This document shows positions 30,415-63,179 of a DNA stretch of 64,000 nucleotides, one piece after another (the first letter of the stretch is position 1; each line of letters starts with the position of its first letter). Location: NCBI GenBank assembly GCA_965198175.1, contig OZ240245.1, positions 2,160,164 to 2,224,163 of the forward strand, written 5' to 3'. The notes below the pieces were generated by a model. The model had not been told where the DNA came from. It saw nothing but the letters and a program-made list of their open reading frames with translations, and searched no databases. A program made the position numbers and the translations under genes. The stretch comes from Candidatus Poribacteria bacterium. GTDB lineage: Bacteria > Poribacteria > WGA-4E > PCPOR2b.

Positions 30415-31008
30415 ATGTCACAGCGCATGAAGTTAATCGTTGGGCTTGGGAATCCCGGTCCACACTACAAAAACACCAGGCACAATGTCGGGTTTCGAGT
30501 CATTGATGAACTGTTACAGCGGACCCAATCGACGCAGTTAGAAAATATCTGCCAATCTCTCGTAGCTCGAACTAATGTGCGGGGGAACGAGGTTATCCTT
30601 GCCAAACCGCTTACCTACATGAACAATAGCGGGCGCGCCGTAAGTGAGATGGTTCACCAATTTGACATCTCTTTGGAGCTTTTGTGTATCGTCTATGACG
30701 ACCTCCATTTGGACATCGGTGTGCTGCGCATGCGTCGATCCGGTAGTGATGGTGGACACAAGGGGATACAATCAATTCAGCATTTGCTGGACACACAAGC
30801 GTTTCCACTTCTACGTATCGGCATCGGCAAGCCGGAAACTGGACACTGGATTGATTACGTTCTCAGTGAGTTTTCACCAGCAGAGAGTGAGGAAATTGAT
30901 TATATGATTCAACGTGCTGCGGACGCAATTGAAACATTGATTTCAGACGGTATCCATAGCGCGATGAATCAGTTTAACGGGCGTGCTGAACAATTGTCGA
31001 TCGATTAA
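30415..31008 (+). CDS. pth: Peptidyl-tRNA hydrolase
   Basis: VGLGNPG, TRHNVGF, KPLTYMNNSG, GGHKG. Confidence 0.96.
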   Translation: MSQRMKLIVGLGNPGPHYKNTRHNVGFRVIDELLQRTQSTQLENICQSLVARTNVRGNEVILAKPLTYMNNSGRAVSEMVHQFDISLELLCIVYDDLHLDIGVLRMRRSGSDGGHKGIQSIQHLLDTQAFPLLRIGIGKPETGHWIDYVLSEFSPAESEEIDYMIQRAADAIETLISDGIHSAMNQFNGRAEQLSID

Positions 31009-31112
31009 GTGGACAACGTAGTTGGGTTCAACATCAAGCGACCGAATAGGGAGTCCGATAGAGTTCCCAATCCAACCCAACACCTCAATCCAACCGATCA
31101 AGTGTTGGGTTT

Positions 31113-31512
31113 TGACCTGCCCCCAAGAAACTGGACAGAGAGCTAAGCAGGATTTTATAATAGCTAAAGGTCCAGAAAGGGGCTATCATGGCGAAGACAA
31201 GACGTCAATTTACTCCCGAATTTAAGCTCGAATGTGTGTTCGATATTATCAGTGGACAGAAACACCCTGCCGAAATTTGCAATGAACATCAAATTAGCGA
31301 TGCCTTATTGTCCAAATGGCGTCAACACTTCATGAATAACGCTGCAACGCTCTTTGTCGCTGAACAGAATCGCAAGAGTGCCTCCAACGCACGCATCGCT
31401 GAACTGGAGCGTCTAGTTAGACAATTGACATTGGAACTGTCTGCCTCAAAAAAAAGTATTGAGTTACTTCGACTCTCGGTAAAGCAAAAACGGGAATTGG
31501 TGGAACGAGGAA
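31113..31512 (+). mobile_element. Truncated IS3-family element (left IR, orfA 31188, slippery site)
   Basis: TGACCTGCCCCCAAGAAACTGGACA end; orfA RRQFTPEFKLE...RIAELERLV; A8G at 31448-31456; cut at a REP element. Confidence 0.85.
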
Positions 31513-31647
31513 GTTCTTGTAGGTTGGGTTGAACGTAGTGAACCCCAACGCTTTTCTGTCGTCCAGAGGTTTCGAAAGCGTTGGGGTTCGGGAAAAACTA
31601 TCGCCTTCGCTATCCGCTCAGTCGATCTCAACGAAACCTACAAGAGC
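31513..31647. repeat. REP/BIME-like palindromic element, copy 1
   Basis: GTTCTTGTAGGTTGGGTTGA...CCCAAC hairpin units in inverted arrangement; near-identical to 34037-34171. Confidence 0.8.
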
Positions 31648-31775
31648 TTATAATTGGTGAAGCCCTCAAGCGTGCCAATGGAAACCAGACGATTGCAGCT
31701 CAACTCTTGGGCATGTCGAGAAATGCGCTGAACAAGTGTTTAAGCCGTTCCCGAACGTCATCGGACGATATCTGA
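31638..31775 (+). pseudogene. Orphan C-terminal Fis-type HTH of a sigma-54 enhancer-binding protein, copy 1
   Basis: LQELIIGEALKRANGNQTIAAQLLGMSRNALNKCLSR; no AAA+ domain upstream. Confidence 0.82.
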
Positions 31776-31845
31776 AACGGTGTTTGTTTTTCTCAATCTC
31801 TTCGCTTTCTACACTATATTCTTACCGTTTTGCCTTCCACCGCCC

Positions 31846-31976
31846 GAAAGGGGTGTGCCATTTGGCGCTATTGCACACATTTGGCGCACATTGCCCAAAT
31901 CCTTGCCTAGCAAGGCTTCGCTCGCTTCTCGACCCCAATTTTCCCGAATTCTGTCAACAAATGTCACACCCCTTTC
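31846..31976. promoter_or_regulatory. Inverted-repeat-bounded putative enhancer (UAS), module 1
   Basis: GAAAGGGGTGTGCCATTTG ... CAAATGTCACACCCCTTTC (18/19), about 120-250 bp upstream of a sigma-54 promoter. Confidence 0.6.
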
Positions 31977-32094
31977 CATACCCCATCAAAGCGATCCATG
32001 CCCAGACCGAAAAACAATTAAACTGCCCGTATCCCTTGACACATCAGGGTTTCCGAGGCCAAACAGAATCCAAATTGAAGGGGATAATCAATCT

Positions 32095-32109
32095 TGGCAC
32101 ACAATTTGC
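32095..32109 (+). promoter_or_regulatory. Sigma-54 promoter, module 1
   Basis: TGGCAC-ACAAT-TTGC, canonical -24/-12 spacing. Confidence 0.85.
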
Positions 32110-32349
32110 TCATTAAGGTAGCCATATGTAACACCTTGAACTGCGGAACGGTCCGCAAACGATGCCTTTGAGGGCAAAGAGCAGACGATAGTAACCACTT
32201 CAGAGGCATAGAGATTGGCTTGGCTATGCTTTCGGTTTTTCTGGTGTTGTTGGTTATATAATCCTAGCTGTTAATGGCTGGATCACAGTCAGATTGCGAA
32301 TGAAACTGTAATGCCATCGGAAATTTAACCACTAAGGGAGGAATTTCAA

Positions 32350-33210
32350 ATGAAAACCGCATTGTTGATTCTTACGTTGGCGTCTTTGTACTTAACCGTG
32401 TTCATTCAAAATGTGGAATCACACATTAAAAACCCTGAAATCAACGCTAAAGCGAAAGTGTACATTCAAGCAATTGGTAATTCTGAAGTTGTTGATTTCA
32501 TAGCAAAATCGAGTTGCACATTTCGTATCGGTGCCCATGCTGGTGGTGCTAATGATAACCATTTGCATAAGGCAAATTGGTTTGCACAAGTCTATATCCA
32601 CGATCCGGGTGGAAACCCAGACCCCAATGGTCTTTACGCCGTTAAAAATCCAACCGAAGACATATAGGGCAGTGGATTCTGGAGACCCGATTCAAGTCCG
32701 TTAAGTGTTGGGAAAACATTAGCGTTAAATGAATGTGCTGAAGGTGATGCCATTTCATCTGGACGCCTATGGACACCCAATCAGGGGGACGATGTATATG
32801 GTCGTGATGAGGACGGCGATAATCATCTCTCATTCTGTATCTGGGGTACAGGTGCAGCTCCAGGGTTGTTTGGAGCTCAAATTCAAGAACTTGACTTTGA
32901 CGAGTTAGGTGAAGTCTTACGTGATTTAATTGAAACCGCACGTTTGATTGACCCTAACATAGATGCTGCCGTTTACTTCGGTGGGCATATCCAAACATTA
33001 GTGTTTGACGAAAATACAGTTTATGTCTATGAGTCATATTCGCTAGGCGTTCCTGAATTGGTGGAAGAAAACTTGAGGGATAACTTGAGAGCTACTGCCA
33101 ATATCGTGGAACTAGATCCTTTGGACGGTGTAGAATACCATATACCAGTAGCCCCAGCTAAGTATCGGCGAAAATTGACTACTACATGGGCAGACATGAA
33201 ACAGAAGTAG
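32350..33210 (+). pseudogene. Secreted His1-type protein A1 with a single in-frame TAG
   Basis: Signal peptide ...NVES|HIK; TAG 32665-32667; same frame continues GSGFWRP...GAAPG...KLTTTWADMKQK; homologous to 38078 and 34592. Confidence 0.8.
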
Positions 33211-33275
33211 CTAACAAATGAAGGCTACTGTGATCCAGTAGCCTTCTAACTTCCTTGCATAAAAGGAGGATAATA

Positions 33276-33797
33276 ATGAAAGTATTACTGTTGCTATTGG
33301 TAATCGTATTGGCTTGTGGTGAAAATGAAGATACTGACAAGGAACTTATTAACACTGTAATCGTTCCCGGACTGGAAGCTGTAGGCATTAAGCTAGGCGA
33401 TGATTTAGATAGAGTTATGGAACTATATGGCGAACCACGCTTAGACTTTAGACCTGAATGGTATAATTCATACCAATCGAACCGTTGGAATATAGCCTAC
33501 GATTGGAGTGATTTAGGCGTAACTGTTTATTTTGACAATAATGATAGAGCTGTTGAAATAGGAGTACGAAATCCAGAAGCACGAACAATAAGGGGTCTTG
33601 GCGTAGGTAGTACGTGGGACGAAGTACATGAAGTATACGGTAATGAATCAAATGTTGATTCAGGTCAAGGTGGGGTTATTACTTTTGGCGATGGTGGTGC
33701 AAAGTACTCAGATGCTTATACTTCTAGGGGTGTAGAATTTAGATATAAAATCAAGCCGTTCATAGTGGTACAGGTTGTTGTCTTTGATAGGGAATAA
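33276..33797 (+). CDS. Lipoprotein B1 with two BLIP/SmpA-like repeats
   Basis: AGGAGG RBS, lipobox VLAC; GIKLGDDLDRVMELYGEP and GLGVGSTWDEVHEVYGNE. Confidence 0.75.
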   Translation: MKVLLLLLVIVLACGENEDTDKELINTVIVPGLEAVGIKLGDDLDRVMELYGEPRLDFRPEWYNSYQSNRWNIAYDWSDLGVTVYFDNNDRAVEIGVRNPEARTIRGLGVGSTWDEVHEVYGNESNVDSGQGGVITFGDGGAKYSDAYTSRGVEFRYKIKPFIVVQVVVFDRE

Positions 33798-33819
33798 GGT
33801 AAGCATTTGTTGGAAGGTT

Positions 33820-33847
33820 GGGGGCAGTTCACGCTGCCCCTTTTTTT
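33820..33847 (+). terminator. Intrinsic terminator
   Basis: GGGGCAG-TTCACG-CTGCCCC-T7. Confidence 0.85.
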
Positions 33848-34037
33848 ATCCTATCATTCCATCTATATTTACTACTACAATTCCACCTATTCTAACTTCT
33901 ACTATGCCTTCAGGTAGATTTAATCGCTGAAGGTTTATATTCCATTTAGTTCCACTACCATTCGCTATCAAGTTGTTTACTGAAACCTGGTTCACCGAAG
34001 CATCAAGATTTATCACTACCACAGCATTAGGCGGTAG
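33846..34037 (-). pseudogene. 3' remnant of a convergent gene cut at a REP element
   Basis: Open frame LPPNAVVVINLDASVNQVSVNNLIANGSGTKWNINL...DGMIG* ending at the terminator. Confidence 0.55.
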
Positions 34038-34171
34038 TTCTTGTAGGTTGGGTTGAACGTAGTGAAACCCAACGCTTTTCTGTCGTCCAGAGGTTTCGAA
34101 AGCGTTGGGTTTCGGGAAAAACTATCGCCTTCGCTATCCGCTCAGTTGATCTCAACCCAACCTACAAGAGC
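34037..34171. repeat. REP/BIME-like palindromic element, copy 2
   Basis: 135 bp, same length as and near-identical to 31513-31647. Confidence 0.8.
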
Positions 34172-34299
34172 TTATAATTGCTGAAGCCCTCAAGCGTGCC
34201 AATGGAAACCAGACGATTGCCGCAGGACTTTTGGGCATGACAAGACAAGCGCTGCATAACCGTCTAGCCCGCACACGAACATCGTCGGACGATGTGTGA
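34162..34299 (+). pseudogene. Orphan Fis-type HTH tail, copy 2
   Basis: LQELIIAEALKRANGNQTIAAGLLGMTRQALHNRLARTRTSSDDV*; same 138-bp length as copy 1. Confidence 0.82.
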
Positions 34300-34491
34300 A
34301 GAGTCGTTTGCCTTTTCCAACCTCTCTTTCCAATCTGTTCAACCCTCTTCTCTCACCTACAACCCCCCGTTGCCTACCCCATCAAAGCGCTGCCATCCCA
34401 GACTGAAAAAAAAAATAAACTGCCCGTATCCCTTAGCACATAAGCGTTTCAAAGCACATGCCGAGTCCAAATTGAAAGGGATTATTGGTTT

Positions 34492-34506
34492 TGGCATATA
34501 TTTTGC
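34492..34506 (+). promoter_or_regulatory. Sigma-54 promoter, module 2
   Basis: TGGCAT-ATATT-TTGC in a context homologous to 32095. Confidence 0.8.
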
Positions 34507-34591
34507 CCTATATTCCTACCGAAGTACCTGATTCAGTTTCGATAACTTGGTTTCCATGCAAACACCGAACAACAATAAGGAGGATTTACCA

Positions 34592-35371
34592 ATGAAACGG
34601 ACCACGGTTTTCACCATGCTACTTTTATCTGTCTTGGTTCTTCTTGTTGATACATCAATTGCTCACATCACTGTGGCAGATGACACCGCGGTAATACCTT
34701 ATGCACGAGTTTCCCGTGTTGAGCAAGGTGACGAGATAAAAATTCAAACCGCTACTAGCGTTTCTGTGAAAACAGGTCCTCACGGGGCTTCTGAACAGCA
34801 CGAGCATGCCTATTTGATCGTTGAACATCAAGTTATTACAGATGCTGACGACTCAAGCATTGTTCACCTGTTCCAATATTGGATGAAAGGTGGCACATTC
34901 GTAGGTTCGGGGCAGAAATCGGAGGGCAGGCCCCGCAGAAGGACGGTAACCGACGGTGCTAAATGGGGTCTAGCGTGGGCATCCGGCGAGGTAAGTTCGG
35001 TCTATCAAATGGCAAGCCATACCGGCGTAGCTCATCCTAATAATCAAGCCATGGTAAACAACGGCATACCAGAGGAGGTGGGCGTGGTTAGTGGACTAAT
35101 CCCACTTCAGCCAATTGCACCTGATTCTTCGTCGCGTGCTGCGATTGAACAAGAACTCGCAGACGCTCTCGCAGCAAACTCAGATGCGTCAGTGGCTGTG
35201 AACTATAACGGTAGAATCTACACGTTTGGTGAAGATGAGGAGCCTGTGTTTGACGGGACAGGTGCCTTATCTACAGTCACCGAGTCAGTAGCGTTACCCG
35301 CAGCACCTCCGAGGCCCGAACCGCGCATTGGAACACTAACTACGACATGGGCATCAATGAAAAATGGATAA
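34592..35371 (+). CDS. Secreted His1-type protein A2 (intact)
   Basis: AAGGAGG RBS; signal ...TSIA|HIT; TGPHGASEQHEH; ends GTLTTTWASMKNG. Confidence 0.82.
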   Translation: MKRTTVFTMLLLSVLVLLVDTSIAHITVADDTAVIPYARVSRVEQGDEIKIQTATSVSVKTGPHGASEQHEHAYLIVEHQVITDADDSSIVHLFQYWMKGGTFVGSGQKSEGRPRRRTVTDGAKWGLAWASGEVSSVYQMASHTGVAHPNNQAMVNNGIPEEVGVVSGLIPLQPIAPDSSSRAAIEQELADALAANSDASVAVNYNGRIYTFGEDEEPVFDGTGALSTVTESVALPAAPPRPEPRIGTLTTTWASMKNG

Positions 35372-35384
35372 ACTTCAATTATGA

Positions 35385-35419
35385 TGGGGAACGTCTAATG
35401 AGTTAGATGTTCCCCATTT
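35385..35419 (+). terminator. Intergenic hairpin (terminator/attenuator), repeated at about 39829-39865
   Basis: ATGGGGAACGTCTAA-TGAG-TTAGATGTTCCCCAT-TT. Confidence 0.6.
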
Positions 35420-35442
35420 CCTACTAACAAGGAGGATTTGTC

Positions 35443-36245
35443 ATGACACGCATATTGATTCTCACCGCAATTTTAGTGATGTGCTTGGCTTGCAGCGAAA
35501 CCGAAACACCCTTAAATCCACATAGGTCTATTGAGCATCAGCCGCCTGATCCTGATGTCATTGTTGAGCCGGTAGGCGAACGTGTTTTACTAGAAGCGCC
35601 CCCAGACATACCCCATGGTCTTGCTGCATCATTTGCCCATATACGGGGCGAACTAAAAGAGGAGATATATCAAGACTTGCTCAGGCAGGTAGATAGATAC
35701 TGTCAAGGAGCGCTCAGGAGAAATACACTCCTGATATACTTAAAAAAAAGGTTGCCACCTCAGGTTTTTCCGGGCTTAAACCTACATGCCCATAGGCTTA
35801 CCCGAATTCCTGCTGCAACTCGCGCAGACAAAGATCGAATCAGAGTCGCGGCTCAACTTGTAAACCCAAATATGCGTGGGCTTTCCTTTACTCAAGGAAA
35901 CGTATACTATTACTTTAACGCAAATACCATATTTATTTCCACTCGACTCGACGGCTATGATATGATGGGGCATTTTACGGATGATGATGATAGGGCATCA
36001 AATTTTTATAACCGAATTGAAAAACTCACAAAACGCTTGCCCCCGGTAAACCAGTTGTTATCCCAGAAATTCCAGAAGATTTAGAACTGGACATCATCAT
36101 TTTGGACGAAAATGGGTTTCCCAAAAACCCCAAATACAGAGGCTGGGTGGATGATTTCGATGATGCGCCTCGAGCTACCGATGAACAAATTGCGGAATAC
36201 AACCGCATACACAGCCCCAACGCCTATGACTGCGTGGAAGAATAA
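35443..36245 (+). pseudogene. Lipoprotein B2, frameshifted near the C5 tract 36040-36044
   Basis: MTRILILTAILVMCLAC lipobox; shifted frame encodes ...FDDAPRATDEQIAEYNRIHSPNAYDCVEE*, matching the C-terminus of 39890-40696. Confidence 0.82.
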
Positions 36246-36256
36246 AGGGGTGAGTA

Positions 36257-36436
36257 GTGAGGAAGGTAGCGATTCTTGCTGTGTGCGGGTTTCTTAGGGG
36301 TTGTGCTGGTAACGAGACTCATCTCAATCCTCTCACCAAAGGGGGGCAACATTTATGTCTTTACCTTTCATTCCACTTTGAACACTACTTCCCCAGACTA
36401 AAAAAATTCAAACTGTCTGCACACCTCGATACACTA
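36257..36436 (+). other. Lipoprotein-signal remnant fused to a partial promoter module (module 3), cut by IS5
   Basis: MRKVAILAVCGFLRGCAG..., then CTCTCACCAAAGGGG and CCCAGACTAAAAAAATTCAAACTG homologous to the other modules, ending at CTAG. Confidence 0.55.
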
Positions 36437-37019
36437 GGTTCTGTTGACATTTCAACGGGGCCAGATAAGCGTGGCGACAAAACTCAGAAATCCGAAATAA
36501 CGGGCAGCCAGCTTCTCGAAACGAGAGAAGATACGACGATACCGTTTTATCTTGTTGATAAAATATTCAACTAGGTGTGTTTCTTTGTATAAATGTGGGT
36601 CGTATGTTCTTTGAGTATCACGATTACGTCGAGGCTGTATCACTGCAATTGCACCATTCGTTTCAATAACGTTGATAAAACTGTCCGAATCGTATCCCTT
36701 GTCTCCAATTACATGCTCGCTGTTATAGCCAACTATCAACGCTTCGGCTTCAGCTATGTCGTGTCTCTGACCGGGGGTTAGCTGGAGTCTAAGCGGATTA
36801 CCCAGTGCGTCAACTGTGATATGAATTTTTGTGCTAAAGCCGCCCCGAGAGCGGCCTAGTGCTTGGTTGTCGGTACGTCCGTTTTTTTTGAGGTTCCAGC
36901 CGCACATGGGTGAGCCCGGCAAATGGTAGTGTCAATAATAAGCCACTCCATATCTGGGTCAGAGGCAATCGGTGCGTCTGTGAGAAGATTCCTTTGTCAC
37001 ACCAGCAGCCAAACCGCTT
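36437..37019 (-). mobile_element. Truncated IS5-family (IS427-like) element
   Basis: orfA tail IDTTICRAHPCAAG, A-tract frameshift, orfB GRSRGGFSTKIH...GDKGYDSD...RRIFSRFEK; end next to CTAG; 5' part cut at a REP. Confidence 0.88.
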
Positions 37020-37095
37020 GTAGTTCTTCTAGGTTGGGTTGAGATTAACGGTGCGAAAAGCGAAGGCGATAGTTTTCTCCTAAACCCAACGCTTC
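37020..37095. repeat. Half REP/BIME element
   Basis: GTTCTTCTAGGTTGGGTTGAGAT...GCGAAGGCGATAGTTTT...AAACCCAACGCTT. Confidence 0.7.
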
Positions 37096-37296
37096 TAAAG
37101 CGAGTCCAACAATTTGCAAATTCCATACCCCATACGTTCAACGCTCCTCACTTTCCTATCACCAACGGACGTTCTGATTGCTATCGGTTTGATTGCTTTA
37201 ACACACCTTGCATTTCATTCAAAAGCCCCTAACGACTTATTCTGAAATTATTTGAGCGACACCGGGTTCGATTTCTCCTACCACAACTCCTCTCAC

Positions 37297-37429
37297 CAAA
37301 GGGGTGACACATTTGTGTCATGTGTACACATTTGTTTACAACCCCTGAAACCCTTGATGTGGTAAGGGTTCCCGCGATTTTCAATCGTAATTTCCCGAAT
37401 TTTTGTAAACATAATGTGTCACCCCTTTG
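37297..37429. promoter_or_regulatory. Inverted-repeat-bounded putative enhancer (UAS), module 4
   Basis: Perfect 17-bp IR CAAAGGGGTGACACATT/AATGTGTCACCCCTTTG with internal dyad TGACACATTTGTGTCA. Confidence 0.6.
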
Positions 37430-37548
37430 CCTACCCCGTCAAAGCGCTGCCGTCCCAGACTGAAAGAAATTTATAACTGCCCGTATCCCTTGACACATCA
37501 GGGTTTCCGAGTCCGAGCTGTTTCTAAATTGAAGGGGATTATTCGTCT

Positions 37549-37563
37549 TGGCACATAACTTGC
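37549..37563 (+). promoter_or_regulatory. Sigma-54 promoter, module 4
   Basis: TGGCAC-ATAAC-TTGC. Confidence 0.85.
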
Positions 37564-37661
37564 CCATAACCATAGACAATACCTCAAGCTGCAGAACGGT
37601 CTGCAGTAACCACATAAATTTCTCTCAAGCAAGCATTGACAGAGGTAGGAAGGTGATAACC

Positions 37662-37993
37662 ATGTTTACGAGAAAACAGAAACGTTGATGGGTGGCGCAG
37701 TTTTGTTTGCCGTGTTACTGGTTGCGGGTAGTTATTTCGGAAGCCGCTGGCGCTATGGCCCCTATGTTGAGCCTGTACGAGAACACCTGTTGTCGGACAA
37801 ACCGCGCTCCGTAAGCATAAACCGCCCTGTCCACGCTTCTGTTTCTCAAGATATCTTATGGGTGTCAGAAACAGATTTGATGTCCGAAGAGGAAGAGGTG
37901 CACGAAACAGTGCGAGAGTTCGTTCAAACTGCACCGTTTGGTGCAAAGACCAACTCAACAGATCAAGAATTTCAAACTGTTCGCGTGCCTTGA
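37662..37993 (+). pseudogene. Frameshifted, truncated N-anchored membrane protein
   Basis: ATG 37662 (MFTRKQ) is out of frame with TM segment LMGGAVLFAVLLVAGSYFG; ends where the promoter-module motif resumes at 37988. Confidence 0.55.
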
Positions 37994-38036
37994 TACACCA
38001 GGCTTACCTGGTCAAAAATTGAAGTAGATTATCTAT

Positions 38037-38051
38037 TGGCATACAATTTGC
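38037..38051 (+). promoter_or_regulatory. Sigma-54 promoter, module 5
   Basis: TGGCAT-ACAAT-TTGC preceded by the shared AAATTGAAG motif. Confidence 0.8.
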
Positions 38052-38077
38052 CACAAATAAGAATGGAGGATTTCACA

Positions 38078-38603
38078 ATGTTCAGGCACAAAGTAACATC
38101 ACTAGCGATTCTCGTTGTTCTAAGTTTGTTAGTTCAAAATGTAGACGCGCACCTCCCAAATTACACTATAGACCCGATCGTAAGTGTAGAAGTGGTGACG
38201 ACGGGAGACCCTTGCGTCCTAGAAATGATTTGTAGTGCTAGTTGCACCTTTTATACCGGAACGCATTCTAGTAATGAAAGTCATTTACACCACGCCAATG
38301 CCCTTTTGCAAGTTTATGTATATCCCCCTGGTGGTTATCCGAATATGCCGCACCCGCGCAGTGTATTCGACATTAAGCTACGTTCTAAGGAATTAAGGGG
38401 ACAAAGAAATTGGATCGCACCGACGTTGAGGATTTCAAGAACAATAGGCCAAGGCGAATGTTTGACCGTAGGCGCCGTTTCAAGAGGAGTAATATGGACT
38501 AGCGGACAGCTAGACCATAAATATAGTCCGACGGCTCAGGGTCGTCAGACCTATGGTAACCTAGGCGCCGCACCCGGTGTGGGCTTCAATCAAAAAAGGC
38601 TAG
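38078..38603 (+). pseudogene. Secreted His1-type protein A4 with C-terminal deletion
   Basis: Signal ...NVDA|HLP; SCTFYTGTHSSNESHLHHAN; after GAAPG the tail WASIKKG* lies in the +1 frame (38580-38603). Confidence 0.75.
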
Positions 38604-39492: not shown

Positions 39493-39691
39493 TCACGGTT
39501 TGCTGATTTTTTATCGCTTCAATAGCCACTTGTGCTTTTAATCGGCTATCGTACTGTTTTCTGTGATGCATGATATGGAAACTCCTTTCTTTTTCTCGGC
39601 GTTGCTGAGCCATATTTTCGCTCAGATGATAACCGTTTTGCCAGTCGGACTGCCACCTTGTTCAACTGTACAGTTTTTGGGGTAATTATAG
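39493..39691 (-). mobile_element. IS3-family left-end remnant
   Basis: End TATAATTACCCCAAAAACTGTACA; orfA start MHHRKQYDSRLKAQVAIEAIKNQQTV. Confidence 0.72.
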
Positions 39692-39817
39692 TTTGACGGC
39701 ACTGGTTCCTTATCTACAGTTACCGAATCAGTAGCGTTACCCGCAGCAGCACCTCCCAGGCCCGAACCGCGCATTGGAACACTAACTACGACATGGGCAT
39801 CAATGAAAAATGAGTAA
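39692..39817 (+). pseudogene. Orphan 3' end of an A2-like secreted protein
   Basis: FDGTGSLSTVTESVALPAAAPPRPEPRIGTLTTTWASMKNE*, closely matching 35249-35371. Confidence 0.85.
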
Positions 39818-39889
39818 ACTTCAATCATGATGAGGAACGTCTAATGAGTTAGATGTTCCCCATTTGAAACCTACAAGGAGGCTTTTGCC

Positions 39890-40696
39890 ATGACACGCAT
39901 ATTGATTCTCACCGTAATTTTATCGATGTGCTTGGCTTGCAGCGAAACCGAAACGCCAATTCCGATAGAACCAAAGCCCATCGTCCAAATCGAAACCGAA
40001 ATACCAATCCATTACGAAATCCCTGCTCACATTCCGCTTGCACTTGCAAAGCGTTATGCTAATCTTCAGGTAGACATGACTGAACCCGAATGGCAGGCGT
40101 CCCTTCAATACATTTACGACCTCTGTCAGGGAGACACCCATCACACCGTCATTGACCTGCACTTGAAGCGTGCTGTCTCGGAGGGAGCATACAATCGCGC
40201 CAAAGATGTACCTCACCCCGCGGCTACGCATGACGACCGCAGTCGAATCTTAGTGGCGTCTTGGTTTAAAGATCATAATGTAAAAGTCGCATTCGACCCT
40301 GACCCAACTGGGCTTAAAGTCATCTACTGGAGAGCGAGACACATAATACTGCTGGAGTTATACGAGGGAGAACCTGAACGAGGCTTGGGAGTGAGTAGCG
40401 GTCCCCTCGGAGGCCCTGCAGCCCCGTTGGACCACCCCATGAACGCAGCCGTATTGGATCAGATACTTGAGGACTGGGTGGAAAAAGGCGAGGTGAATAC
40501 ACCTGATGTTCCTGACAAGCACAAGCGTGAGCATACCGCCTACATTGTGATAGATAAAGCAGATGGTTTGCCGGTCGAACCGAAATACAAGGATTGGATA
40601 GTTCATTTTGACGATGCACCCCGTGCAACCGATGAGCAAATTGCGGAATACAACCACATACACAGTCCCGATGCCTATGACTGCGTCGAGGAATAG
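39890..40696 (+). CDS. Lipoprotein B5 (intact paralog of B2)
   Basis: MTRILILTVILSMCLACSETETP...APRATDEQIAEYNHIHSPDAYDCVEE. Confidence 0.82.
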   Translation: MTRILILTVILSMCLACSETETPIPIEPKPIVQIETEIPIHYEIPAHIPLALAKRYANLQVDMTEPEWQASLQYIYDLCQGDTHHTVIDLHLKRAVSEGAYNRAKDVPHPAATHDDRSRILVASWFKDHNVKVAFDPDPTGLKVIYWRARHIILLELYEGEPERGLGVSSGPLGGPAAPLDHPMNAAVLDQILEDWVEKGEVNTPDVPDKHKREHTAYIVIDKADGLPVEPKYKDWIVHFDDAPRATDEQIAEYNHIHSPDAYDCVEE

Positions 40697-40733
40697 CGAA
40701 AGTAGGGCTAACGCCTGACCACAAGCCGCAACA

Positions 40734-40805
40734 GTAGGATCTACACATTTCGTGAAGATGAGGAGCCTGTATTTGACGGAACAGGCGCCTTATCCACAGT
40801 GACCG
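40734..40805 (+). repeat. Internal fragment of an A2-like gene
   Basis: RIYTF.EDEEPVFDGTGALSTVT matching 35211-35283. Confidence 0.75.
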
Positions 40806-40851
40806 CATTTGAATGATGTCTACTGATAATCCCAAGAAGGAGGAATACCCA

Positions 40852-42041: not shown

Positions 42042-44240
42042 ATGAAGAAAGCGATGTTTTTCAAGTTTAACCTATTATTCGTCTTCGCTCTATGTTTACC
42101 GCACAGCTTCGCCCAAGATTCTCCGCAATTGGGGCTGCCAGAGGGTGCTAAAACGCGCCTCGGTAAAGGAATTTTTAATCTGATACAGTATTCGCCCGAC
42201 GGCACTCGCCTCGCGGTCGCCAGTGGTATCGGCACTTGGCTTTACGATGCGGCGACCCATCAAGAAGTCGCTCTGCTCACCGGGCACACGGGTAGGGTCT
42301 GGAGCGTATCGTTCAGTCCCGATGGACGCAAAATAGCTAGCGGGAGTTTGGACCGTACCGTCCGTCTGTGGGACACCGGTACAGGAGAACACCTGCACAC
42401 GCTTACCAGGCATGTCGGCAGTGTCTATAGCGTTGCATTCAGTCCCGATGGTCGCACCTTGGCTAGTGGAGGTGAGTCCCCTACCATCCACCTCTGGGAC
42501 GCCGATACCGGAGAACACCTGCGTACGTTTACCGCCCATACGGATGACGTTTGGAGCGTGGCGTTCAGTCCGGATGGTCGCACAATCGCCAGCGGAAGTT
42601 CGGATGAAACCATCCGTCTGTGGGATGCCGATACGGGCGAACGCTTGCGAACACTCAAGGGACATACGCATGCGGTCTGGAGCGTGGCGTTCAGTCCCGA
42701 TGGTCGCACAATCGCCAGTGGGAGTTGGGACAAAACCGTCCGTTGGTGGGACGCTGATACGGGAAGACCCCTGCGAAAGCGCATCGGGCATACGGGTACG
42801 GTCTGGAGCGTTGCGTTCAGTCCCGATGGTCGCACCATCGCTAGTGGGGGTAAGACCACTATCCGTCTGTGGAACGCCGATACCGGAAAACACCTGCAAA
42901 CACTCATCGGGCATACGAATTATGTTAGGAGCGTTGCGTACAGCCCCGATGGACGCACCATCGCAAGCGGGAGTTGGGACAGTACCATCCGCCTGTGGGA
43001 CGCAGATAAGGGAAAACAACTGCGAACGCTTGAGGGGCATACGGGTAGCGTCCATAGCGTTGCATTCAGTCCGGATGGCAGCACCATTGCTAGTGGGATT
43101 CGCGGTGACAGCACCATCCGACTGTGGGACGCAGATAAGGGAAAACAACTGCGAACGCTCACTGGGTCGGGTTGGGTCTATAGCGTAGCGTTCAGTCCCG
43201 ATGGCGACACCATCGCTAGTGGGAGCTCCGACGATACCATCCGATTATGGAACGCGCAAACGGGAGAACATCTACAGATGTTCATTGGGCATTTGGGGAC
43301 GGTCTATAGCGTAGCGTTCAATCCCGAAGGCACCAGGTTAGCCAGCGGGGGTTGGGACGACACTATCCAGTTATGGGACCTCAACAAGGGAAAACACCGG
43401 CGAACGCTCACCGGGCATAGGAACCACGTCTATAGCGTTGCGTTCAGTCCCGATGGACGCACACTCGCTAGCGGGAGTTGGGACGACACTATCCGTCTGT
43501 GGAACGCCGGTGGTAAACATCTGCTAACGCTCAACGGGCACAGGAATCAGGTAAACGACATAGCGTTCAGCCCCGATGGACATACGATTGCTAGTGGGAG
43601 TTGGGACACTACCATTCGATTGTGGGACGTTGATACGGGAGTACACCTCCGCACGCTCAACGGGCATGCGTTTGGGGTCTATAGCGTCGCTTTCAGTCCT
43701 GATGGACGCACAATAGCTAGTGGAGGTCATGATGCCACCGTCCGATTATGGGACGCCGACACAGGAGAACACCTCCGCACGCTCAACGGGCATACAGATG
43801 AGGTTCGCAGCGTTGCGTTTAGTCCCGACGGGCGCACACTCGCGAGTGGGAGCTGGGACGGCACGGTGTTGCTTTGGGAAGTTGCTTCTTCAATCCAATT
43901 AGCGGTGGAACCGTTGGCAAGACGCACCACGACTCTGGGAAACATCAAACGCACGGCGTTGCTGCAGAATTATCCGAATCCGTTCAACCCCGAAACTTGG
44001 ATTCCTTATCAGTTGGCAAACGATTCACTCGTAACCTTGTGCATCTATGACCAGAGCGGTCGTATCGTCCGCACCCTCGACATTGGACGTCAAGTTTCAG
44101 GAGTCTACCGAGACAGAGCAAAAGCAGCGTATTGGGATGGCCGCAACCAAACCGGAGAACCCGTCACGAGCGGCGCCTATTTCTATCAACTCCGTGCGGA
44201 GGATTACAGCGCGTTACGACGGATGGTAATTGTTAAGTAG
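42042..44240 (+). CDS. Secreted WD40-repeat protein (about 14 repeats) with C-terminal FlgD-Ig/T9SS-CTD-like domain
   Basis: Signal peptide; GH..V.SVAFSPDG...SGS.D.TIRLWD repeats; LLQNYPNPFNPETWIPYQL...SGAYFYQL...RRMVIVK. Confidence 0.93.
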   Translation: MKKAMFFKFNLLFVFALCLPHSFAQDSPQLGLPEGAKTRLGKGIFNLIQYSPDGTRLAVASGIGTWLYDAATHQEVALLTGHTGRVWSVSFSPDGRKIASGSLDRTVRLWDTGTGEHLHTLTRHVGSVYSVAFSPDGRTLASGGESPTIHLWDADTGEHLRTFTAHTDDVWSVAFSPDGRTIASGSSDETIRLWDADTGERLRTLKGHTHAVWSVAFSPDGRTIASGSWDKTVRWWDADTGRPLRKRIGHTGTVWSVAFSPDGRTIASGGKTTIRLWNADTGKHLQTLIGHTNYVRSVAYSPDGRTIASGSWDSTIRLWDADKGKQLRTLEGHTGSVHSVAFSPDGSTIASGIRGDSTIRLWDADKGKQLRTLTGSGWVYSVAFSPDGDTIASGSSDDTIRLWNAQTGEHLQMFIGHLGTVYSVAFNPEGTRLASGGWDDTIQLWDLNKGKHRRTLTGHRNHVYSVAFSPDGRTLASGSWDDTIRLWNAGGKHLLTLNGHRNQVNDIAFSPDGHTIASGSWDTTIRLWDVDTGVHLRTLNGHAFGVYSVAFSPDGRTIASGGHDATVRLWDADTGEHLRTLNGHTDEVRSVAFSPDGRTLASGSWDGTVLLWEVASSIQLAVEPLARRTTTLGNIKRTALLQNYPNPFNPETWIPYQLANDSLVTLCIYDQSGRIVRTLDIGRQVSGVYRDRAKAAYWDGRNQTGEPVTSGAYFYQLRAEDYSALRRMVIVK

Positions 44241-54374: not shown

Positions 54375-56030
54375 ATGAGGATAACCCCCGTCCAATCTCA
54401 ACTTCTACCCACCGTTGTCCTCGTACTGGTCGCTATGAACAGTTTTGCCGATCTGCCCTCTGTGTTCGTGGATGTGACTGAGGAAGTCGGCATCCACTTC
54501 AAACACACCAATGGCAAGATCGACCGTTGGCATGTCATCGAAACTATGGGGTCTGGCGCCGTCTTCTTCGATTATGACAACGATGATCGGCTCGATCTTT
54601 ATGTCGTCAATAGTGGATATGTACCAGGCACGACTCAGAAACCTTCGCCTGGAAATATGTTATATCGCAACGATGGGAATGGTGGCTTTACCGATGTCAC
54701 CACCGCTTCAGGGACAGGAGATACCAGATATGGGATGGCAGCGGCAACCGCTGACTATGATAACGATGGAGATCAGGATTTGTACGTCGCCAACTTTGGC
54801 GCAGATGTGCTTTACCGCAACAACGGAGATGGCACCTTTACCGATGTCACTGAAGCGGCGGGCATCAATAATGAACTCTGGGGCGTAGCAGTTTGCTATC
54901 TAGATTTCGATCTAGATAGCGATTTGGACATCTTTGTCGTCAACTACGTAGTGTACGATCTGTCGATGCCCCCTTATATTACCTATAAGGGCGTGGTTGG
55001 CTATGGTCCCCCACGTACCTACGAAGGAACGCCAGATGTGCTTTACCGAAACAATGGGGATGGCACTTTTACCGATGTTTCACAGCAAGCCGGTGTCTCA
55101 AATCCGGTCGAAGGACGAGGTATGAGCGGGGTGGTATGTGACTACGATAACGATGGTTGGCCGGATATTTATGTTCCCAATGACACCAACCGGAACTTTC
55201 TGTATCATAACGATGGGGATGGGACGTTTACAGACGTAAGTTTATTTAACGGTACGGGATATGATGAAAACGGCATTGCTGAGGGATCTATGGGCGCGGA
55301 CTGTGGGGATTATAACGCGGATGGATGGTTAGATTTGCTAATCGCCAATTCGGAAACGGCGACCCTCTACAAAAATGATCGGGATGGCGGATTTACCGAC
55401 GAGACCGCCGCTGCGGGCCTGCGAGAGGCTACCTATCTATTTGTGGGTTTCAGCGCGCTATTCCTGGATTATGATAATGACGGACATCTCGATATTTTCT
55501 CTGCGAACGGGCATCCGCAAGCGATTATCGAACAACTGACCGATGAAGAGACCTACGCGCAAAAAGATCAACTGTTTCGCCATAATGGAGATGGAACGTA
55601 CATGGAGGTGTCAGCAACTTCTGGAGCATATTTCTCGGAGGCGTTTGTGGGGCGGGCAACTGCCAGCGGGGACTATGACAATGATGGAGATACGGATATT
55701 TTTATTGTGAATTCCAACCAGCGCGCGATTCTGCTTCGCAACGATGGGAACGATCGGCATAACTGGATTCGCATCAAGCTGGTGGGCGCCCGCAGCAATC
55801 GGGATGGCATCGGCGCGCGAGTCCAGGTTACAACGGGTGGAAGAAGTCAGATTGCCGAGGTGAAGAGTGGTTCTAGTTACGCTTCCGGTAGCGATAAGCG
55901 TCTGCTGTTCGGTTTAGAAACGCATCGTCGAGTAGATCAGCTTGAGATTCGGTGGCCAAGCGGGATAGTCCAGCGTCTCACGAGTATTCGTTGTAACAAA
56001 ACCGTTACCGTCGTTGAGCGTGGATCTTAA
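54375..56030 (+). CDS. CRTAC1 family (FG-GAP repeats + ASPIC/UnbV) protein
   Basis: ETMGSG, repeated DYDNDG.D, SNRDGIGARV, IRWPSG; start uncertain. Confidence 0.92.
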   Translation: MRITPVQSQLLPTVVLVLVAMNSFADLPSVFVDVTEEVGIHFKHTNGKIDRWHVIETMGSGAVFFDYDNDDRLDLYVVNSGYVPGTTQKPSPGNMLYRNDGNGGFTDVTTASGTGDTRYGMAAATADYDNDGDQDLYVANFGADVLYRNNGDGTFTDVTEAAGINNELWGVAVCYLDFDLDSDLDIFVVNYVVYDLSMPPYITYKGVVGYGPPRTYEGTPDVLYRNNGDGTFTDVSQQAGVSNPVEGRGMSGVVCDYDNDGWPDIYVPNDTNRNFLYHNDGDGTFTDVSLFNGTGYDENGIAEGSMGADCGDYNADGWLDLLIANSETATLYKNDRDGGFTDETAAAGLREATYLFVGFSALFLDYDNDGHLDIFSANGHPQAIIEQLTDEETYAQKDQLFRHNGDGTYMEVSATSGAYFSEAFVGRATASGDYDNDGDTDIFIVNSNQRAILLRNDGNDRHNWIRIKLVGARSNRDGIGARVQVTTGGRSQIAEVKSGSSYASGSDKRLLFGLETHRRVDQLEIRWPSGIVQRLTSIRCNKTVTVVERGS

Positions 56031-61490: not shown

Positions 61491-63179
61491 ATGATATTTG
61501 AACGCATAGACAGACAACCTGTACCGCGGACAATATTTCTCATTTGTATTCTGAACCTCTCCATGTGCATACAAGAGCCACCTCCTGCGGATGCGCTTCC
61601 TGAGTTTGTCGAGATAACTAAGACGGCAGGAATTGACTTTGTCCACAATACAGGCGCCTTTGGGAAAAAGTACCTTCCGGAAACGATGGGTTCCGGTTGC
61701 GCATTCATTGACTATAACAACGATGGTTGGAGCGATATTGTGTTGCTGACCTGCAAAGATTGGACAGGATACCCGACCGGAAAGCGTCAATCAATGGCGC
61801 TCTATCGAAACAATCACGACGGGACTTTTGCGGATGTCACAAAGAGCGCTGGGTTAGCCGTTGAGTTGTACGGAATAGGCGTCGCGGCTGCTGACTACGA
61901 TAACGATGGCGATGACGATCTCTATGTCAGTTGTCTTGAGGCGGATCGGTTGTTCCAAAATCAGGGCGATGCAACCTTTGTTGATGTAACGAAGCAGGCG
62001 GGCATTCATAATCCTAGCTTCGGAACCAGTTGTGCATGGTTCGACTATGACAAGGACGGCAATCTAGACTTGTACGTTGCTAATTATGTGGAATGGACCA
62101 TCGAAACCGATATTTTCTGCACGTTAGATGGCACAAACAAAGCATACTGTACGCCCGAATCTTATCATGGGCAGTCGAGCCGGTTATTTAGAAACCGTGG
62201 CGATGGCACCTTCGTTGATGTTTCACGGATTTCTCGGATTGAAGATCGGACCAGCAAATCACTAGGGGTCTGCATCTTCGATTACAATTCTGATGGATTG
62301 CCCGATATTTTCGAGGCGAATGATACACAACCCAATAAACTCTATCACAACAATGGCGACGGAACTTTTATCGAAACAGGACTCAACGTGGGCATCGCCT
62401 ATAGCGAGAATGGGGTTGCAACCGGCGCAATGGGAATTGATGCTGGAGACTATGATGGAAGCGGCAGAGAAAGTCTGGTGATTGGCAATTTTTCTAATGA
62501 GATGATGAATCTCTACCATAATGAGGGGGAGATTTTTATTGATGACGCGCCCATTGCCAACATCGGAAATGCGAGCCTATTGACACTCACATTTGGGTGT
62601 TTCTTTTTTGATTTTGACCTTGATGGAAGGCTTGACATTTTTGCCGCGAACGGACACGTTGAAAATGAAATCAACGCCGTACAGAGTGAGGTTACTTACG
62701 CACAGGTTCCTCACCTGTTTCGCAACACCGGTGACGGAAAGTTCCAGGACGTCGCGCTGAAGATCGGCACTGACCTTGCAAACCCGATTGTCGGACGTGG
62801 TGCAGCGTACGGAGACATCGACAACGATGGCGATTGGGATATCCTGGTCACGACTTCTAATGGGCTTGCCCATTTATATCGCAACGACGGAGGAAATCAG
62901 AATCACTGGATAAAACTGAAATTGATTGGATCCAAAAGCAATCGAAACGGTATCGGTGCAAGGGTTACGATAACGTCGAAATCTGGCACGCAGACGCGAA
63001 CATTGAAAAGCGGTTGCAGTTATTGTTCACAGAGCGAGCTGTCGCTAATCTTTGGAATTGGACAAACTCCCCGAATTGACATGATTGAGGTGAATTGGCC
63101 CAGCGGGGTTGTCGATCGACTCGTTAACATAAATGCGAATCAACTTCTTGTTGTTGAAGAAGGGAAGACCAATGAGTGA
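61491..63179 (+). CDS. CRTAC1 family (FG-GAP repeats + ASPIC/UnbV) protein
   Basis: PETMGSG, DYDNDGD repeats, SNRNGIGARV, VNWPSG. Confidence 0.92.
   Translation: MIFERIDRQPVPRTIFLICILNLSMCIQEPPPADALPEFVEITKTAGIDFVHNTGAFGKKYLPETMGSGCAFIDYNNDGWSDIVLLTCKDWTGYPTGKRQSMALYRNNHDGTFADVTKSAGLAVELYGIGVAAADYDNDGDDDLYVSCLEADRLFQNQGDATFVDVTKQAGIHNPSFGTSCAWFDYDKDGNLDLYVANYVEWTIETDIFCTLDGTNKAYCTPESYHGQSSRLFRNRGDGTFVDVSRISRIEDRTSKSLGVCIFDYNSDGLPDIFEANDTQPNKLYHNNGDGTFIETGLNVGIAYSENGVATGAMGIDAGDYDGSGRESLVIGNFSNEMMNLYHNEGEIFIDDAPIANIGNASLLTLTFGCFFFDFDLDGRLDIFAANGHVENEINAVQSEVTYAQVPHLFRNTGDGKFQDVALKIGTDLANPIVGRGAAYGDIDNDGDWDILVTTSNGLAHLYRNDGGNQNHWIKLKLIGSKSNRNGIGARVTITSKSGTQTRTLKSGCSYCSQSELSLIFGIGQTPRIDMIEVNWPSGVVDRLVNINANQLLVVEEGKTNE

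Follow-up and report, generated by a model that had tools for sequence, protein, structure and literature searches.

Enhancer-binding proteins of the NtrC family combine a receiver, a sigma-54-activating AAA+ domain with a GAFTGA motif, a lid and a helix-turn-helix (HTH) domain of the HTH_8 type. Polymorphic toxin loci, both those for contact-dependent inhibition (CDI) and those of the Rhs type, carry orphan modules made of a C-terminal tip and its immunity partner, and Neisseria holds silent pilS cassettes. Pseudogenes linked to mobile elements, and gene conversion among paralogues, are also a known kind of thing. We examined a 64,000-nucleotide stretch of Candidatus Poribacteria bacterium (assembly GCA_965198175.1, contig OZ240245.1, positions 2,160,164 to 2,224,163; the window) that carries two orphan 3′ tails, A and B, of NtrC-type activator genes. 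The first-pass annotation of this DNA had proposed that the two tails, with their constant 5′ half and variable recognition helix, could graft new DNA-binding specificities onto full-length activators, and had given plain decay of duplicated activator genes as its alternative. That alternative fits A and B best. We consider it probable that the tails no longer function and are what is left, at the 3′ end, of two different paralogues among the NtrC-type response regulators that depend on sigma-54, the genes having decayed within a recombining family. For A and B the outcome is mainly a correction: they would be relics, not a new specificity-swapping device. A literature search, judged from its listings, returned no work on this activator family or on tip exchange in enhancer-binding proteins.

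Tails A and B and the repeat at their break

Tail A (31646–31775, forward strand) comprises the last ~43 codons of an NtrC-type activator, a Fis-type HTH with the recognition helix SRNALNKCLSR and a stop codon at 31773–31775. Tail B (34170–34299, forward strand) comprises the last ~43 codons of a different NtrC-type paralogue, with the helix TRQALHNRLAR. Our translations of both agree with those in the first-pass annotation. HTH_8 is the only Pfam match in either tail (E 3.8e-08 in A and 2e-09 in B, both above the curated cut-off), and a sigma-54 AAA+ domain with GAFTGA is absent from both. Whereas full-length NtrC-family proteins contain all of these domains, the tails keep the HTH alone and can neither contact sigma-54 nor hydrolyse ATP. 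Upstream of both tails, the 5′ part of an activator is missing.

The frames of the two tails also differ. Tail A lies in an open frame of 77 codons, 64 of them counted from a TTG within the repeat that precedes it, and tail B in a frame of 49 codons from stop to stop in which ATG, GTG and TTG are all absent ahead of the HTH. With frames of 77 and 49 codons, the tail frame is not conserved between the copies. Additionally, the recognition helix of A has a cysteine where all 16 other family tails compared have an arginine. Population data came from contigs of four runs (the readable labels say sponge metagenome), three of DNA and one, X17, of RNA; all are short-read contigs broken at repeats, no piece spans the stretch, and parts without coverage are uninformative. 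In a contig from run X3 the codon at 31737 is CGT (Arg), which indicates that the Arg-to-Cys change in tail A is recent. This substitution, an in-frame TAG in the gene downstream of A, and the loss from B of both a start codon and the stretch where its relatives carry enhancer sites are the reasons to read the tails as decayed.

Alternatively, each stub might yield a small HTH protein that acts on its own, sitting on the enhancers and thereby damping neighbouring promoters or insulating them. The 64-codon frame of A and the full HTH_8 match in both stubs are in line with such a role, to which we nonetheless give hardly any credence: B has only 49 codons without a start ahead of its HTH, the frame is not conserved, and B has no enhancer left to occupy. 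In activators of this kind, moreover, the Fis-type HTH domain does not usually dimerise without the remainder of the protein. We keep to decay, and the stubs presumably give rise to no useful product.

In both A and B, a repeat stands in place of the entire activator except its last ~43 codons. Element A (31512–31648) has 22-nt inverted ends (31511–31532 and 31628–31649) and an inner perfect 15-nt hairpin; element B (34036–34172) has 21-nt inverted ends (34036–34056 and 34152–34172) that are 95% complementary. At 137 nt, and with inverted ends of 21–22 nt that are 86–95% complementary, the elements have the small size and terminal structure of miniature inverted-repeat transposable elements (MITEs), and the repeat, taken as a single DNA strand, folds far better than shuffled sequences (z = −8.8). 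They differ from each other at 5 positions (96% identity). The genome contains 177 matches to the repeat, of which 3 are near full length and the rest are sub-units of ~70 nt; beyond A and B, the one near-full-length copy is 77% identical and the others are partial. No target-site duplication is visible at A, at B or at the copy in the closest relative (G001). Because of this, and because only three copies are nearly full length, we call the elements MITE-like and nothing more. An Rfam scan of 30900–38600 (E up to 0.1) gave no match, so that the repeat, like the promoter module described below, falls outside described RNA families.

The junction between repeat and tail is exact. It is at the right end of the element that the tails become homologous to the five further copies in the genome, and the HTH reading frame emerges from the right inverted end, so that each tail opens with codons that belong to the repeat. 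Everything upstream of the last ~43 codons is lost from both A and B, with the 137-nt repeat exactly at the break. Metagenome contigs contain the same junctions: those from run X3 span that of A (31513–31712) with a 17-nt deletion inside the repeat, and those from run X6 span that of B (34143–34300) and are identical. One X3 contig joins inverted sequence resembling an IS3 insertion sequence (IS) to position 34249, cutting tail B further. In G001, element B and its left flank likewise come after the orthologue of the gene at 33255–33797, but the right flank of the element is unrelated there. The element thus marks a rearrangement junction. A search of this genome with the G001 right flank returned only IS-like matches at ~75%, and the rearrangement could therefore not be reconstructed.

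The activator family and the switch between A and B

To place the tails, we took a census of the family by a whole-genome DNA search with copy A followed by a six-frame regular-expression search. Seven family tails were found, 3 in frames of 477–533 aa and 4 in frames of 49–132 aa. The long frames are full-length receiver-AAA+-HTH activators (FL_286, FL_2452 and FL_4635), each preceded by a histidine kinase gene; in FL_286 the domains are Response_reg, Sigma54_activat (E 2.7e-55, with the GAFTGA motif), AAA_lid_14 and HTH_8. Among the short frames, trunc_296 is a tail at the end of a 132-codon remnant beside an IS5-type transposase (C1:296020–296418), and the other three are the short stubs A, B and C1:4402830. 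The last of these sits in-frame behind a sigma-70 region-4-like fragment (C1:4402729–4402959). The first-pass annotation had called for a search for full-length activators with the constant segment, and these exist both here and in relatives: across 21 related genomes, 25/36 family tails are in frames of at least 450 aa and 11/36 in shorter ones. In this genome 4/7 tails are in frames below 450 codons, and frames under 80 codons occur in none of the others. An A-like helix, SRNALNKRLNR, occurs in a 501-aa activator of genome G002 (L033), and full-length genes of congeners have B-like helices (SRQALHNRLAR in L038 and L039, TRQALHNRLSR in L047). G001 has no tail of the A or B type.

All seven tails are followed by a conserved promoter module of ~140 nt with the sigma-54 motif TGGCAY-N5-TTGC and then by genes for secreted proteins. 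For the two stubs this bears out the earlier description of each tail as lying directly upstream of its own promoter module: module A occupies 31968–32111 with −24/−12 elements at 32095–32109, and module B 34365–34508 with elements at 34492–34506, all on the forward strand. The kinase gene in front of the full-length members and the promoter with paired upstream sites behind them are again as in the NtrC family. The peculiarity of this family is that, in every member seen, the activator gene is directly followed by its target promoter, which places the tip and its presumed enhancer only ~80 nt apart. The ancestral unit would have consisted of a histidine kinase gene, a receiver-AAA+-HTH gene, a pair of CATTTG-core sites ~80 nt after its stop codon, a sigma-54 module and small secreted-protein genes.

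Five further promoter modules in the genome have no tail, including that of a third cassette in the window, C. In sum, an intact activator stands in front of 3/12 modules and the adjacent activator has been lost from 9/12, and one may ask whether the few regulators that survive now serve the whole set. Sigma-54 itself is encoded by a single rpoN gene (Sigma54_DBD E 8.8e-58), and of the 14 Sigma54_activat matches in the genome none lies within the window; the nearest member of the tail family starts ~227 kb past the window end. If promoters A and B are still active, they would be driven in trans by surviving paralogues.

We then compared A and B position by position. A pairwise alignment runs from about 31509/34033 to 31801/34325. 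The near-identity of the tails reported earlier is real, although the shared block starts at ~31509/34033 and not at 31638, and its first ~137 nt are the repeat. Over 31512–31696, 6/185 positions differ. Within the tails, the 5′ half up to 31696/34220 differs at 1/50 positions (31657, G in A and C in B, the only difference within 31638–31696), and the remainder, from 31697 to the stop codon, at 23/79 (Fisher P 4.5e-5). The abrupt divergence noted earlier is thus confirmed, and it falls at the 3′ end of a constant segment (EALKRANGNQTIA; 31659–31696, forward strand) that is kept family-wide and forms a 38-nt exact match with 34183–34220 (2 matches, 0 expected in 100 shuffles).

Throughout the family the DNA of the 5′ half is conserved, with 0–16 differences in 50 among all 17 tails compared, and so its constant appearance is only partly special to A and B. 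Yet the A–B value of 1/50 is the lowest of the 102 tail pairs with at least 15 differences in the 3′ half; the other pairs have at least 4 and on average 9.4 differences in the 5′ half. The family ratio predicts 9.8 differences for A and B (Poisson P 6e-4, pairs not being independent). The nearest relatives of the two 3′ halves are different: that of A is the orphan at C1:4402830 (7/50 differences in the 5′ segment, 7/79 in the 3′ segment), and that of B is the full-length FL_2452 (5/50 and 13/79). Together with the 96% identity of the two repeats, these values show that the repeat and 5′ half are identical by descent and stand on two different 3′ halves. The switch at 31696/34220 is accordingly a recombination breakpoint, one of several in the activator family. 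Either one cassette received the block of repeat and 5′ half from the other, or in one of them the 3′ half was replaced, in both cases by homologous recombination with its right end where the family-wide conservation of the DNA stops.

Could A and B look alike without having recombined? The same repeat might have been inserted independently at a preferred target, the identity of the 5′ halves then reflecting strong selection on the helix. Family-wide conservation of the 5′ half is what such selection would produce, and a third truncation, no more than ~8 nt from the repeat junction, may be a sign that the site is fragile or targeted. We find this account highly improbable, since the A–B distance is well below that of other comparably diverged pairs, the two repeats are 96% identical when every other copy either is partial or reaches no more than 77% identity across the full length, and the upstream part of the activator is absent from both, a loss that simple insertion would not cause.

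Several observations weigh against decay in a recombining family as the full account. Two independent truncations, that at the A/B repeat junction and the fusion to the sigma-70 fragment at C1:4402830, are separated by no more than ~8 nt of a 1.4-kb gene, a coincidence not expected from decay alone. The G at 31657 in A matches the orphan at C1:4402830 within an otherwise B-like block, and either copy may have been the donor, in one recombination event or more. No target-site duplication was found that would point to transposition of the repeat. Tail A keeps its 64-codon frame from a TTG inside the repeat, from which a small HTH peptide could still be translated. Finally, RNA contigs of run X17 cover parts of the genes behind A (32340–32668) and B (34803–34974) at low depth. 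They are a weak hint of transcription, by which promoters A and B may still fire, and DNA carry-over in the library is possible.

Enhancer sites and exchange among family members

Most cassettes have two CATTTG-core sites 19 nt apart, ~80 nt past the stop codon, which the tips are predicted to bind. Behind A, the candidate pair lies at 31854–31888 and is of type GCCATTTGGCGC, with a third related candidate site at 31952–31967. The same type is found behind the 4402830 stub, the tail-less module p256 and the G002 loci L032 and L033 (helix S[RK]NALNK). Type TGACATTTGTCAC stands behind FL_286, trunc_296 and the G001 locus L030 (helix SRYALHK), and type GC.ACATTT.TTGC behind FL_2452, FL_4635, L034 and L035 (helix [TS]RQALN). 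G001 L031 is an exception, with an SRYALHK helix and sites of type GCCATTTGGCGC. No CATTTG-core pair lies between the stop codon of B and its module: compared with its closest relatives, B is missing ~125 nt exactly at the position of their enhancer pair, and its stop codon is 189 nt from the sigma-54 motif, as against about 295–320 nt in the other six cassettes. The idea that tips differ between paralogues and tend to go with different types of adjacent CATTTG-core enhancer is supported, with L031 as the one departure from it; the pairing of tip and adjacent enhancer types is suggestive in loci that are kin. Beyond the genus, the regular expression found the tail in 8/18 loci, 7/8 of which have the sigma-54 motif. 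The sites are too variable for a simple helix-enhancer rule, and we propose no recognition code.

Exchange also involves full-length members. Over ~5.9 kb, the FL_286 and FL_2452 loci have identical sequence but for a few scattered changes. This block takes in most of the regulator gene, the 554-codon kinase gene, another gene of 464 codons and part of a repeat-protein gene. It ends at the codons for PFPGN(I/V)RELEGMV. Beyond it, identity is 42–78%, and the two loci have different linkers, tips, enhancers and cargo. FL_286 and its G001 orthologue L030 are separated by ~17 mismatches per 100 nt over the gene body, whereas the final 300 nt of the gene have only 5 mismatches and the 135 nt that follow it have 9. 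This pattern indicates that a 2452-type body overwrote the 286 locus, where the native linker, tip and enhancer stayed. Additionally, trunc_296 and its G001 counterpart L031 differ at 8/500 positions at the gene's end and then at 44/100, and have different enhancer types. The two loci that share the ~5.9-kb block are at G000:C1:~281000–293000 and ~2446400–2452300, outside the window.

A further candidate was not counted as a mosaic. FL_2452, L033 and L037 have cargo in common at 83% amino-acid identity and different tips, but the regulator gene there is more diverged than the cargo, and block replacement is therefore indistinguishable from fast evolution.

These cases resemble gene conversion and ectopic recombination in systems with mobile-element-linked symbiont pseudogenes, as identity shifts sharply from one segment to the next, the breaks are occupied by IS elements or repeats, and related genomes repeatedly contain truncated copies. 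They differ in that the exchanged blocks are functional modules, a sensor and ATPase body on one side and linker, tip and enhancer on the other, so that one kinase-receiver-ATPase sequence has come to stand on two DNA-binding tips. The family is thereby a natural example of rewiring in a two-component/sigma-54 circuit, with a 100% identical kinase-receiver-ATPase body on two tips, enhancers and sets of cargo. The FL_286/FL_2452 pair offers a ready-made test of the output specificity of the last ~110 residues and the adjacent sites. Recombination that joins one body to different tips, enhancers and cargo, as proposed earlier, is thus found among full-length loci. The constant segment is not the only place where breakpoints of the family fall; others lie at further module borders, namely the end of the AAA+ domain, the stop codon and the position after the enhancer.

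In one possible account the stubs are a silent reservoir, donating recognition helix, enhancer and cargo through recombination in the constant segment. The likeness to CDI and Rhs orphan tips and to pilS is easy to see: a truncated 3′ end, a short conserved stretch, a variable tip and a partner sequence of its own, with recombination in the conserved stretch able to swap tips. Full-length genes do have the constant segment, the A/B breakpoint is at its 3′ end, full-length loci include body/tip chimeras, and tip and enhancer types mostly pair. Although these points are real, we judge a reservoir very unlikely. The tails differ from the described systems in forming an array without a full-length head gene: no full-length activator lies in the window or beside the stubs, and the tails start at a repeat. 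Nor are the orphans intact with their partner elements, given the cysteine in A, the nonsense codon in its cargo gene and the missing enhancer of B. The known chimeras join full-length loci at the borders listed above. Among the listed contigs of the three DNA runs, we found the same stub junctions or the IS-linked cut at 34249, no transfer, and no stub joined to a full-length activator, though rare recombinant forms may exist. The polymorphic-toxin analogy finds no support for A and B, and decay of the two stubs remains the reading we favor.

A broader version concerns the family and not the stubs. In this lineage of sponge symbionts, recognition helix and enhancer, ~80 nt apart across the stop codon, might form a linked specificity block that homologous recombination has repeatedly moved, flanked by conserved DNA in the first HTH helix or at the AAA+ end on one side and in the promoter module on the other. 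We regard this as unlikely but worth stating. If it were true, block exchange would rewire the pairing of signals with secreted-protein operons without uncoupling an activator from its site, and the stubs would be by-products of block traffic that could occasionally act as donors.

Neighbouring features of the window

The left end of element A abuts a fragment of an IS3-type transposase OrfA (31188–31532, forward strand; Pfam HTH_Tnp_1 E 8.1e-11), copies of which occur at ~87% identity elsewhere in this genome and in congeners. Element B is preceded by a short fragment of a gene and by the terminator of the gene before it. The cargo gene of cassette A (32350–33210, forward strand), of a secreted-protein family, is interrupted by the in-frame TAG at 32665–32667. 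It is followed by a gene for a small lipoprotein-like protein (33255–33797, forward strand) and a terminator (33820–33841). Cargo gene B (34593–35371, forward strand) encodes a secreted protein without a Pfam family that shares 77% identity with the cargo of another truncated activator (C1:296020–296418). Among the eight cargo proteins or fragments scanned, seven have no Pfam family and the other has a weak, sub-threshold match to DUF7738.

Between cassettes B and C lies a fragment of an IS5-type DDE transposase (36452–36922, reverse strand), and upstream of cassette C is a partial copy of the element A/B repeat family in reverse orientation (37021–37141, reverse strand). Cassette C itself (37305–37563, forward strand) has no tail. 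It consists of a candidate enhancer pair, with TGACACATTTGTGTCA at 37305–37320 and a second site at 37324–37339, and a module at 37422–37565 with sigma-54 elements at 37549–37563. The window holds four TGGCAY-N5-TTGC sites (32095, 34492, 37549 and 38037), all on the forward strand and all upstream of secreted-protein genes, against 0.33 expected. The fourth (38037–38051) is directly upstream of the secreted-protein gene at 38079 and does not have the module of cassettes A, B and C.

Other repeats and duplications are scattered through the stretch. Directly after the pth gene is a palindromic repeat of the GTTGGGTT type (31009–31110); at the orthologous locus of G001, pth runs straight into a cassette-C-like promoter region, a sign of heavy rearrangement in this 14-kb stretch since the two genomes parted. 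A short repeat that separates promoter A from cargo A (32160–32250) has many copies at 83–88% identity in genomes of other genera (G006, G017 and G020), and a 940-nt contig of the RNA run touches 32194–32250. Stretches of 88–93% identity link 35207–35510, where cargo B ends and the next lipoprotein gene starts, with 39691–39957 and 40730–40833 in a second gene pair 4.4–5.5 kb downstream, a further patchy duplication among cargo genes. In 42275–43886, probably a gene for a repeat-domain protein, a 126-nt unit is repeated in tandem at least 12 times at 63–78% identity. Eight copies of a 46-nt unit, which presumably resembles FG-GAP/VCBS-type repeats, are found at 54652–55609 and 61792–62377.

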